The position numbers were made by a program. Shown here in pieces: positions 21,001 through 24,000 of a stretch of 45,982 nt of DNA; position 1 is the first letter of the stretch; the number at the start of each line of letters is the position of its first letter. The DNA is taken from positions 1 through 45,982 of the forward strand of contig CAYPCY010000004.1 in assembly GCA_964409385.1 (NCBI GenBank), in the 5' to 3' direction. Origin of the DNA: an uncultured Methanosarcinales archaeon (lineage in GTDB: Archaea > Nanobdellota > Nanobdellia > Woesearchaeales > CAYPCY01).

Positions 21001-24000
21001 AAAGCTGCAAAATTAGAACCTAATTTTAAAACAAGATATAAAGTTTTTAAAGATTTAAGAGAAAGAGGTTATGTAGTAAAGACCGCATTAAAATTTGGTG
21101 CGGATTTCAGAGTTTATGATAGGGGTGTTAAACCAGGAGAAGATCATGCAAAATGGGTTGTTTTTCCAGTTACAGAGGGAGAAACATTAACTTGGCATGA
21201 TTTTTCTGCAAAAAACAGAGTTGCACATTCTACAAAGAAAAAACTTCTTATGGGAATAGTAGATGATGAGAATGATGTAACTTATTATGAAGTAGGCTGG
21301 GTTAGGCCATAAACTTTTTTAACTTATTCATTCTTTAAAATAATATGCAAAAAGAACAGGTTCTAGAATTTGTAAGACATAATGGTCCAATAATACCCAT
21401 TGATATTAAAAAAAAACTAGGATCAGACACGACATTAATAGGTGCTATGCTTTCAGAATTAGTAACTAATAAGTTGGTCGAAATTACGAGTGTTAAAAAA
21501 GGAGGAAGTCCTTTCTATTATGTTAAAGGACAAGAAGAAAAATTAGAAGATCTTCATGAATTCTTGAATGATAAAGATAAAAAAACATGTTTTTTGTTAA
21601 AAAAAGAAAAAATTTTATTTGATGATAATCAATCCCCCTTAGAAAGAGTTTCTCTAAGACAAATTAATGATTTTGCTAAAAATTTAGAAATAAATTTTTA
21701 TGGAGATAAAAGAACATTATGGAAATATTATTTAGTTTCAAATTCTGAAGTAGAAAGTTTATTAAAAGAAAGATTTGGAAAGAAAAAGACTGTTCAAAAA
21801 AAGAAAACTCTTCCATTAAAAAAATCAAAAACTAAAGAAGAAACAATTATTTTTCTTGAAAAAATAAGATCTTATTTGCAAAGTAAGAATATAGAAATAA
21901 CTAATGAAGAAATCATAAGATCAAGTTCAGAAATAGATTTTAAAGTTAAAATCCCAACAACAATAGGTAGCATGGAATATTACTGCAAGGCAAAAAGAAA
22001 AAAAAATTGCAATGATGGAGATTTAAGTACTGCATATGTTAAAGGAATATCAATGAATCTTCCTGTTTTATTTATAACAACCGGAAGAGTAACAAAAAAA
22101 GCAAAAGAAATGATAAAAAAAGAATTTAAAGGATTAATATTGAAGGAAATATAATATGGGAACAAAATTAACAGTTCTAGTAGAACCAAAAATTGTAAGT
22201 TATAATGATTTAAGAGGGAAAACATTCGCAGTTGATGCTCATAATGTTTTATACCAATTTTTGACGACAATAAGAAGTTATGATGGGAGTTATTTAACAG
22301 ATAAAAAAGGAAATATAACTAGTCACTTAATTGGTTTATTTAATAGATCTGTTGCGTTAATGGAACTAGGTTTGAAGTTATGTTTTGTTTTTGATGGGAA
22401 AGTTCCGGAATTAAAAAAAGAAGAAACCCTCAGGAGAAAAGAATTGAAAAATGTTGCTTTGAAAAAGTATGAATTAGCAGCTGCTGAAAAAAACATAGAG
22501 GAAATGAAAAAACAAGCGACAAGAACCACAAAATTAACTAAGGAAATGATTGGAGATGCTAAAGAATTAATAATTGCGTTAGGAATGCCAATAGTTGAAG
22601 CACCATCTGAGGGAGAAGCACAAGCTGCAAAAATGGTAAAAGAAAAAGAGGTTTATGCAGCAATTAGTCAAGATTATGATACTTTATTGTTTGGTTGTCC
22701 TAGAATGATAAAAAATTTAACAATAAGTAAAAAGAGAAAAATCCATGGAACTTATGCGATGAAAGAAGTTTTCCCTGAAATAATAGAATTAGGACAACTT
22801 TTGAATTCAACAGGATTAGACCAGGATAAGCTAATAGCATTAGGTATAATGACTGGAACAGATTATTGTAGGGAAGGTATAAAAGGAATAGGTCCTAAAA
22901 AAGCATTAAACTTACTAAAAAAAAATTCTGTAGAAGAAGCATTCTTAAAGGCTGGTTGGAATCAAAAAATAAAATGGGAAGATGTTTTTAAGTTAATAAA
23001 AGAAATGCCAACAAAATCTGTAAAAAATATAGGCTGGAAAAGTGTTAATGTTGAAAAAGTAAAAAAAATTCTTGTTGAGAGACACGATTTTGATGTAGAA
23101 AGAGTAGAAAAAACTCTTGAAAAGTTAAATGTTAATCAAAAAGGATTATCTGATTTCTTATAAAAATAGCCAGCACTCCTTAGTTACTTCCGCTAATCAC
23201 AGGCAGTGCCTCATTGGGTGTTCACCTAGTCATGGTGCTGGCGAGAAAAAGAAATAAAGCAGAGATTAAAAATTTAATCCCTATCAAGTCTACTCATAGT
23301 GTGTTCAAAAAAATGTGAAGAATCTCTAGGATCATCTCTGTAAGAGTCTTGCATTAAAATTTCCATAGGAAATTTATATGTTTCTTGTTCCATATCAAAT
23401 GGTGTTTGTTGTAGTTCTTCGTGTTCAAAAGATTTTTTAAAATAAATTATTTGTTCCTGGAGGTTCAATCTCTTATTTTCCTTGTAGAAATCAAAAAAAT
23501 CATTCACTAACGAAAAGGATTTTAGAAGTTTACTAATTTCAAATGCATGCATTAAATACAAATTATTGGAATGTGCTGTTTTTGAAAGATAGATTACTGT
23601 TTGTTTCCAATTTAATAAATTGTCTGAAGATTTTAAAACTTTGTAAGTTTCTAAATGGTCTTCAAGACTTAAAATTAGATCATTATTTTCTGTTGCTAAT
23701 TTGTTAGCAATACTATATGATTCAAAGAAAGTTTCTACTTCTTGAAAGTTAGGAAATTTGTCTGAAAAATAAGAAATTTCTTCTCTAGAAACTTCAGGAA
23801 ATTTTCGTCCTAATTCTCTAACTTGTTTTCCGAAATATGCTTCATTTGCAGAAGGAATAATTTCAAAATCAATAACTTCATCAACTGTTTTATTTTTCCA
23901 GTTTTTTTTACCTTCCTTTCTTCTTTTTCTTTCATTCATTTTACTACCTTTTTTAATTAGTTAAGTTAATATATATTTAAAGTTTTTTGAAATCATAACA

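Follow-up and report, generated by a model that had tools for sequence, protein, structure and literature searches.

The candidate gene and its anatomy

The stretch of DNA analysed (the window) comprises 45,982 nt, contig CAYPCY010000004.1 of an uncultured archaeon. Within it, the FEN1 gene on the plus strand ends in a stop codon at 23161-23163 and a 221-aa ORF on the minus strand ends in a stop codon at 23274-23276; between these two stops lies an island with a GC content of 0.46, against about 0.27 in its surroundings. A first-pass annotation had recognised this GC-rich gap after FEN1 and placed in it a widespread, structured and unannotated small RNA gene, without any Rfam match, in which a covarying closing stem encloses two nearly invariant blocks and a hairpin that varies. 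These observations were reproduced, and the two blocks correspond to the two putative guides described below. No Rfam model reached its gathering score over the window, and at E ≤ 10 none of the Rfam 15 families, those of C/D RNAs included, matched the element. Nearby, chance-level matches were seen for CRISPR-DR63 at 23353-23389 (E 0.19) and for two snoRNA models inside FEN1 (E > 2).

The same annotation had assumed the plus strand, stated that box C/D motifs were missing and left the function undefined. Read on the minus strand, positions 23167-23245 very probably represent a gene for an archaeal box C/D methylation-guide sRNA of 79 nt, with its own box-A promoter and an end at a U tract; the kind of RNA is assigned from the boxes and from spacers of 12 and 13 nt. 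The covariance model R1 scores the whole gene at 83.8 bits (E about 1e-22) and, with filters off, detects no second copy in the window, where the next-best match has an E of 0.29. The kind of RNA is already known, an ordinary archaeal box C/D guide, and the novelty lies in this widespread gene, which was previously unannotated.

All elements of the sRNA are given here in the minus-strand sense. The first of them is GCCAGCAC (23235-23242), the 5' strand of an 8-bp terminal stem that would act as the C-stem of a C/D K-turn and whose 3' strand is GUGCUGGC (23169-23176); this helix is 85.6% paired among homologues. A 3-nt bulge (CAU) precedes box C, found at 23227-23233 as the variant AUGACUA, which agrees with RUGAUGA at five of seven positions; its UGA is kept in 35/35 homologues and its columns T14, G15 and A16 are invariant in 20/20 aligned genomes. 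The D' spacer GGUGAACACCCA (12 nt, 23215-23226) follows, holding the pairing guide GUGAACACCC at 23216-23225 and an A at the N+5 position (23219), and is bounded by box D' (23211-23214), AUGA in the window and CUGA in many homologues, with GA present in 35/35. The variable hairpin GGC-ACU-GCC (23202-23210) would provide the C-stem and loop of an internal C'/D' K-turn, and its helix (helix 4) is 96.9% paired. Box C' (GUGAUUA, 23194-23200) agrees with RUGAUGA at six of seven positions, its UGA being invariant in 35/35, and leads into the D spacer GCGGAAGUAACUA (13 nt, 23181-23193) with the guide CGGAAGUAACU at 23182-23192. Box D (23177-23180) is the variant AGGA, in which only GA, kept in 33/35, is retained.

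Only the UGA and GA cores are invariant, and the window copy is among the degenerate ones, with five of seven box C positions and two of four box D positions (AGGA against CUGA) conforming to the consensus. A CUGA box D occurs in several homologues (G050, G088, G051 and G073), GAUGAUU-type boxes are also found, and canonical CUGA and UGAUGA stand at D'/C' in many of them. Spacer lengths are nearly fixed among the 35 homologues: 12 nt in 30 and 13 nt in 5 for D', 13 nt in 34 and 14 nt in 1 for D.

Archaeal boxes have been defined by their GA/AG K-turn motifs (Dennis et al. 2015, PMC4644070). In each of the two K-turns predicted here a 3-nt bulge accompanies the C-stem, next to which one GA faces another; in the terminal one, the 8-bp stem and the CAU bulge are combined with a GA in box C (23230-23231) facing the GA of box D (23177-23178). 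Beyond the G.A pairs a covarying Watson-Crick pair is seen (columns 19-71: UA 10, CG 4, GC 4), and columns 33-56, which join D' position 1 with C' position 6, are CG in 9, AU in 8 and UA in 3 of the 20 genomes, none being unpaired. The positions between the G.A and flanking pairs are mostly non-standard (e.g. U.U), as in C/D K-turns.

Right after the terminal stem lies a U5 tract (23162-23166), a likely archaeal terminator, which shares positions with the stop codon of FEN1 on the opposite strand. A TATA-like box A, TTTTTAAT (23265-23272), is found 20-27 nt upstream of the model start, beside the stop codon of the upstream ORF; in Nanoarchaeum equitans a box A TTTAAA was described 26 nt upstream of the transcription start (Randau 2012). 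Transcription from this putative promoter, like the RNP assembly and the methylations discussed below, is a prediction made from sequence.

Covariation, strand and distribution

When 20 genomes are aligned with MAFFT without regard to structure, all eight pairs of the closing stem (23169-23176 with 23235-23242) change on both sides. Seventeen pairs were tested in total, and none of 500 shuffles reached any of the measures used; slid controls were 30-45% paired, against 81% for the true structure. Here, as in the counts below, the genomes compared are related and do not represent independent samples.

Every strand-sensitive line of evidence points to the minus strand. Read as minus-strand RNA, the paired positions contain 14 G-U against 3 A-C (13 against 0 in the core), and GNRA/UNCG loops number 14 in this sense and 1 in the opposite sense. 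Moreover, a TATA-like box at the same upstream distance is present in 22/35 homologues in sense and in 4/35 in antisense, and a T4 run no more than 15 nt downstream in 13/35 and 0/35, respectively. Since pair types, tetraloops, promoter and T-run all favour it, the gene is assigned to the minus strand. The earlier statement that box C/D motifs are missing does not hold there, with UGA in box C (35/35) and box C' (35/35) and GA in box D' (35/35) and box D (33/35).

The gene is also more frequent than first reported. The earlier figure was 56 of 100 other genomes; a strand-corrected, K-turn-aware covariance model gave matches in 127/150 relatives and, in a sample of the phylum, in 100/151 genomes. 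A strong FtsJ/RrmJ-type gene was detected in 23 genomes of the same sample, although tRNA methyltransferases also belong to the FtsJ Pfam family and the matches, of about 190 aa, may include Trm7 besides RlmE, and only 1 of the 23 also has the sRNA; the genome studied here gives only a 26-bit FtsJ match. The sRNA and the RrmJ/FtsJ-type gene are almost mutually exclusive, which suggests that the RNA supplies the methylation. Neither the sRNA nor a strong FtsJ match was found in 29/151 genomes, including 15/16 of one family. In five genomes of family f43, which lack both sRNA and FtsJ, a search for a diverged A-loop guide gave pattern matches in 2/5, none of them convincing (5 matches over the forward and reverse strands of the five genomes, against 2 in a backwards control).

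The two guides and their predicted targets

The rRNA of this genome is absent from its assembly, where a search for targets found no assembled rRNA, and the targets were read from the LSU sequences of relatives. The D' guide GUGAACACCC forms 10/10 Watson-Crick pairs, at guide positions 2-11, with GGGUGUUCAC of the 23S A loop (helix 92) in 4/4 relatives' LSUs; an equally good match is reached by 54 of 20000 shuffled guides. By alignment to the annotated E. coli 23S rRNA, the partner of the N+5 base is U2552, a residue of the ribosomal A loop that is universally methylated. This guide, the better of the two, is predicted to point fibrillarin at U2552. Guide-directed modification of the same residue has been predicted in five of seven archaea (Dennis et al. 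2015, PMC4644070).

The assignment of the D guide is less certain. It can pair with AGUUACU-CCG, E. coli 23S 2435-2444, in 4/4 LSUs as 7 bp, a 1-nt guide bulge and 3 bp, which leaves seven contiguous pairs around N+5 and would place this position on U2438, a residue for which no record of modification was found. Ten Watson-Crick pairs with 2435-2444 are kept by 33/35 D-guide variants through a shift of the bulge; such a match is only moderately unlikely by chance, as 535/20000 shuffles match as well. In genome G051 a tandem paralogue shares this D guide, and its D' guide is antisense to the neighbouring segment 2444-2452. The two targets of the sRNA lie about 115 nt apart in 23S domain V. The best non-self match of the D guide in the genome (C1:168776-168788) was rejected, being in a coding region whose coding strand has the sense of the guide.

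The first-pass annotation had noted that its first block could base-pair with helix 69 in a relative, and had doubted the pairing at the same time. For this plus-strand block, runs of 13-14 pairs including 1-4 G-U are indeed found in 3/4 LSUs of relatives, and the doubt was justified: the pairing falls to runs of 5-8 in 9/35 variants, and helix 69 was discarded as a target. The complementarity is best seen as a by-product, since 23S 2435-2444 is itself complementary to the helix 69 5' strand. Both the helix-69 pairing and the denial of box C/D motifs arose because the wrong strand was read.

Alternative readings, proposed mechanism and known systems

The trm5/PAN/fen1 synteny reported earlier was recovered: within 1.5 kb on either side of 29 other loci, PAN was found at 21, Trm5 at 19 and FEN1 at 7, with none of these at 4. 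The position between two convergent stop codons, and a U tract overlapping the one that ends FEN1, could indicate that the element is no separate gene but serves FEN1 (plus strand) or the 221-aa ORF/Trm5 (minus strand) as a conserved terminator or 3'-end structure. This is scarcely credible, because the flanking genes vary, the 221-aa ORF being beside the element in 0/29 other loci, whereas the element remains in place together with the TATA-like box upstream of it; in addition, invariant blocks of 10-11 nt antisense to rRNA would be unexpected in a terminator. It is also very improbable, if slightly less so, that the locus encodes, on the plus strand, a new class of small RNA whose block AGUUACUUCCG pairs with the helix 69 5' strand of 23S rRNA and might, for instance, guide pseudouridylation or assembly. 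The plus strand does pair with helix 69 of the GGCGGGGGUAACUA type, in runs of 14 (4 G-U) in G059, 13 (3 G-U) in G077 and 13 (1 G-U) in G058, and the fold of 23160-23255 has a z of -1.82 on the plus strand against -0.83 on the minus strand, both weaker than the -2.8 first given. No helix-69 run of at least 9 exists, however, in G032, where the block varies, and besides the strand evidence given above, this reading does not explain why the UCA/UC motifs are invariant and the 12/13-nt spacing fixed, and its second block would match the A loop in sense instead of being antisense to it. The cloverleaf-like minimum free energy fold of the plus strand was dropped, as its arms are not kept in homologues. 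Other classes of RNA were likewise set aside: an H/ACA sRNA, as no ACA follows the stem (UAU on the minus strand, GAG on the plus) and the single-stranded blocks end at a GA box and not at a pocket, and a tRNA or split tRNA, as ARAGORN predicts 0 genes in the window and the cloverleaf-like arms are not conserved.

A third alternative keeps the minus strand and the K-turns and proposes that the RNA binds L7Ae and pairs with 23S domain V as an assembly chaperone or tether, with no methylation at one or both sites. The degenerate boxes C and D, the D duplex that is always bulged and the closeness of the two targets are in line with it, and chaperone roles have been proposed for double guides (Dennis et al. 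2015, PMC4644070). Still, it appears improbable, though less so than the other two: the D' duplex comprises ten pairs without a flaw and its N+5 falls exactly on the universally modified U2552, an identical guide is present in an expressed C/D sRNA of N. equitans, and the sRNA and FtsJ/RrmJ-type genes nearly exclude each other. The preferred reading is that of a box C/D methylation guide.

The mechanism proposed for such a guide would run as follows. One K-turn would be built from the terminal stem of 8 bp, the bulged CAU and the tandem G.A/A.G pairs that boxes C and D contribute, and a second from D', the hairpin and C'; L7Ae would bind both, and Nop5 and fibrillarin would then assemble. The D' spacer would pair through GUGAACACCC with helix 92, bringing the ribose of U2552, five nucleotides from box D', into the active site of fibrillarin. 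The D spacer, with one of its guide bases bulged out, would pair with 2435-2444 close to the peptidyl-transferase centre, and would either direct methylation of U2438 or only tether this segment. Genes for all three proteins are present in the genome: fibrillarin (C5:27138-27746, 245 bits), Nop5 in the adjoining gene (C5:26533-27111, 160.7 bits summed) and L7Ae (C6:12064-12342, 99 bits). It may be speculated, with considerable reserve, that a single orthologous double guide, kept across most of a DPANN order, replaced RrmJ for the essential Um2552, while its bulged second arm tethers the A loop to the peptidyl-transferase-ring strand during the folding of domain V or installs an undescribed methylation at U2438.

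An unknown widespread RNA thereby becomes an annotatable gene, and with the covariance model a C/D sRNA could be labelled in most members of this uncultivated archaeal order, whose genomes lack annotation of such RNAs and in which Rfam finds nothing. The data suggest a route by which reduced genomes without RrmJ make the conserved A-loop methylation, and a case of RNA-guided and protein-only enzymes swapping within one phylum. They also carry a caution for genome scans, in that structured RNAs should be checked on both strands before box motifs are excluded.

Archaeal C/D sRNAs are the guides of the L7Ae-Nop5-fibrillarin methyltransferase, and those of Sulfolobus, Pyrococcus, Methanopyrus and others share with the present sRNA the two K-turns, spacers of about 12 nt, the N+5 rule and double guides to nearby rRNA sites. 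Compared with them, this sRNA has a GC-rich 8-bp terminal stem and a 13-nt D spacer with an obligatory bulge, and in many of its members the boxes are cut down to UGA/GA cores. Archaeal C/D sRNA sets usually turn over quickly, whereas here one orthologous gene is kept across more than 100 families. RrmJ/FtsJ (RlmE), the protein-only 2'-O-methyltransferase of 23S U2552, would give the same predicted product, Um2552, as a stand-alone enzyme without a guide RNA. In yeast (snR52/Spb1, 25S Um2921), the A-loop uridine that corresponds to U2552 is likewise methylated under the direction of a C/D guide RNA; snR52 is a eukaryotic snoRNA, compared here by its target site.

The comparison with N. equitans sR10 (Randau 2012), from the same phylum and with the same order of boxes, was made on its published sequence, which reads GTGATGA-AGTGAACACCCT-CTGA... 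in supplementary file 1 of Dennis et al. (2015, PMC4644070); "2552", "2526" and "2438" do not occur in that supplement, in which the sR10 guide was located by its sequence motif. As far as the published sequence goes, the boxes of sR10 are canonical (GUGAUGA, CUGA) and those of the window copy degenerate, its D'-C' linker has 3 nt in place of the hairpin, and it has no counterpart of the 8-bp terminal stem, in keeping with the description of N. equitans sRNA ends as "not base-paired" (Randau 2012). Its D guide, AAAAUCCACACA, implies another second target than that of the present sRNA. The D' spacer of sR10, by contrast, contains the identical GUGAACACCC with box D' in the same register, and would direct methylation to the same N+5 target, U2552.

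Strand and anatomy of the RNA

The features that a first-pass annotation had described for this RNA of about 80 nt, a covarying outer stem, two near-invariant blocks and a variable hairpin, were all seen in its homologues, which BLAST recovered in 20 of 101 related genomes, no two from the same family and all from one order. Its reading of the plus strand has to be reversed, since the gene strand is the minus strand, on which the conserved short motifs CUC, UCA, UCA and UCAU, without evident sense on the plus strand, become GA or UGA. In this sense (window 23167-23245, minus) the RNA reads 5'-GCCAGCAC-CAU-GA-CUA-GGUGAACACCCA-AUGA-GGCACUGCC-U-GUGAUUA-GCGGAAGUAACUA-AGGA-GUGCUGGC-UAUUUUU. 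Inside an 8-bp closing stem, box C is separated from box D' by a spacer of 12 nt and, past a short linker, box C' from box D by one of 13 nt; archaeal box C/D sRNAs are laid out in this way. Both box pairs present the geometry of a K-turn: next to a Watson-Crick stem, one strand carries three unpaired bases and then GA, and the GA of the partner strand adjoins the stem without a gap. Among the 35 homologues aligned to the model, the UGA of box C, the GA of box D' and the UGA of box C' are kept in all, and the GA of box D in 33; the spacers measure 12 nt from C to D' in 30/35 and 13 nt from C' to D in 34/35.

Covariation was measured on a MAFFT alignment of 20 genomes built without reference to structure. 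In this alignment 81% of the cells are paired and both sides change in 15 of the 17 pairs; none of 500 shuffles reached any of the covariation measures, and moving the partners by 1-3 columns left a pairing of only 30-45%. The pairs lying just past the sheared G.A covary cleanly (columns 19-71: UA 10, CG 4, GC 4; columns 33-56: CG 9, AU 8, UA 3, none unpaired), and between these flanking pairs mostly non-standard positions are found, as expected for the K-turns of C/D RNAs.

Independent evidence points to the minus strand. When G-U was counted against A-C in the helices, the minus sense scored 14 and the opposite sense 3 (13 and 0 in the well-paired core), and GNRA or UNCG hairpin loops occur in 14/35 homologues in the minus sense and in 1/35 in the other. 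Upstream, at a constant distance, a TATA-like box accompanies 22/35 in the minus sense and 4/35 in the opposite one (TTTTTAAT at 23265-23272 in the window), and a T4 run within 15 nt downstream was found in 13/35 and 0/35, respectively. For Nanoarchaeum equitans, Randau (2012, PMC3491384) describes T-stretches as terminators and, 26 nt ahead of the points where transcription begins, a box A of the sequence TTTAAA.

Predicted guides and their 23S rRNA targets

No 16S or 23S rRNA was found in the 15 contigs (797906 bases) of the assembly under study, despite 100% marker completeness, and targets were therefore sought in the LSU rRNAs of four sRNA-carrying relatives and the SSU rRNAs of three. 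The D' guide GUGAACACCC matches GGGUGUUCAC by 10/10 Watson-Crick pairs in all four LSUs, the duplex comprising positions 2-11 upstream of box D'. Alignment to an annotated E. coli 23S rRNA identifies this target as the helix 92 A loop (E. coli GGC-U2552-GUUCGCC), in which the fifth guide nucleotide faces U2552, the base predicted to be methylated. A perfect 10-mer was obtained for only 54 of 20000 shuffled guides against the LSU and SSU of one relative.

For the D guide, CGGAAGUAACU, the best rRNA match is AAAAGUUACUCCGG, which is kept in the four LSUs and corresponds by alignment to E. coli 2435-2444, in the central ring of domain V. The duplex consists of seven contiguous pairs, one bulged guide base and then CGG with CCG; the N+5 position falls on U2438, which would be the methylated base. 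This match is less unlikely by chance than that of the D' guide, 535 of 20000 shuffled guides matching as well. In its support, the only variable positions of the guide are those at the bulge, and 33/35 variants (CGGAAG, CGGUAG, CGGAUG, CGUGAG and CGGAAAG) keep ten Watson-Crick pairs with the target of the four relatives by moving or lengthening it. A tandem paralogue in G051 (L016:1335-1410, minus), 75 nt from the main sRNA (L016:1486-1565), also speaks for this target, as its D guide (ACGGAUAGUAACU) is the same as that of the main copy; its D' guide, GUUAUCCCCAG, is antisense to the adjoining 23S segment GGGGAUAAC (E. coli 2444-2452). The first-pass annotation had noted a possible pairing of one plus-strand block with helix 69. 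In relatives such a pairing is indeed seen, because the segment 2435-2444 can itself pair, if G-U is allowed, with the 5' strand of that helix; as the same annotation had remarked, the pairing is not kept, being absent in G032 and reduced to runs of only 5-8 in 9/35 variants. Helix 69 was thus rejected as a target, and its pairing regarded as a by-product.

Other copies were noticed: G098 has a second, weaker model match beside its main copy, and G036 has a partial duplicate (L053:1375-1451, plus) 50 nt upstream of the intact one, with the 5' half and its A-loop guide retained and the 3' half decayed. Several relatives carry large insertions in their 23S genes (G077, G032 and G058), with lengths of 3268 and 3618 nt vs 2912 in G059; the insert directly after the equivalent of E. 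coli 2474 adds about 140 nt in G058 and is shorter in G077. Introns or expansion segments could account for these insertions. As for tRNAs, ARAGORN without intron mode returned only 21 genes in the genome under study, two with odd 4-base anticodon calls, which suggests intron-containing or unusual tRNAs.

Locus, distribution and relation to RrmJ

The RNA occupies some 80 nt that stand out as a GC-rich island (0.46 GC vs about 0.27 in the surroundings). This island lies between two stop codons, that of the plus-strand gene FEN1 (22156-23163) and that of a minus-strand ORF of 221 aa (23274-23939) for which Pfam gave no match. One flank holds tRNase Z, the tRNA-splicing endonuclease EndA and a 269-aa ORF with no Pfam match (21345-22154), the opposite one Trm5 and the proteasome ATPase PAN; with FEN1 they form a row of RNA-processing genes around the sRNA (window 19805-26288). 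The 221-aa ORF, located between Trm5 and the sRNA, with its stop codon adjoining the predicted box A, looks like a lineage-specific insertion, as tblastn gave no match in 29 homologous loci. Within 1.5 kb of 29 other sRNA loci, PAN was found in 21, Trm5 in 19, FEN1 in 7 and none of the three in 4. A weak match to the Rfam repeat model CRISPR-DR63 within the 221-aa ORF (23353-23389, minus; 23.5 bits, E 0.19, gathering score 37) is probably due to chance.

A covariance model built from the minus-strand alignment, both K-turns included, matches 23167-23245 (E ~1e-22), with no other match below E 0.29 in the window. It also matches 127/150 related genomes (including the unpublished G131), 98/115 high-quality ones, and 100/151 genomes of a phylum-wide sample, five of them from other orders of the class. 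In these 151 genomes, which are related, not independent and uncorrected for phylogeny, a gene of the FtsJ/RrmJ type with a strong match (E<=1e-10; the ORFs are some 190 aa long; the FtsJ Pfam family also covers tRNA enzymes, which limits the comparison) occurs in 23, the sRNA alone in 99 and neither in 29; both occur together only in G170, where both matches are weak. The FtsJ match of the genome under study reaches only 26 bits. In one family (f43), the sRNA is found in 0/16 genomes and a strong FtsJ in 1/16, 15/16 having neither, and a pattern search of five of its genomes for a diverged guide gave nothing convincing. The distribution fits the replacement of a protein-only U2552 methyltransferase by a guide RNA, and may reflect such a displacement.

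Comparison with known guide RNAs

Taken together, the element is, as predicted from its sequence, a box C/D methylation-guide sRNA, unannotated in the genomes that carry it and invisible to Rfam; the genome under study encodes fibrillarin and Nop5, in adjacent genes, and L7Ae. It is unusual in the length of its terminal stem, in its pared-down boxes, in a second guide that is both conserved and bulged, in its exceptional conservation and in a distribution complementary to that of RrmJ. Modification of the A loop at U2552 and/or G2553 is described in a review (PMC7994747) as always present, and Dennis et al. (2015, PMC4644070) predicted guide-directed modification of U2552 in 5/7 archaea. In their supplementary table, N. 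equitans sR10 is given as GTGATGA-AGTGAACACCCT-CTGA-...; the A-loop guide is common to both RNAs, the D' guide of sR10 as listed there being identical to the one described here, in register too.
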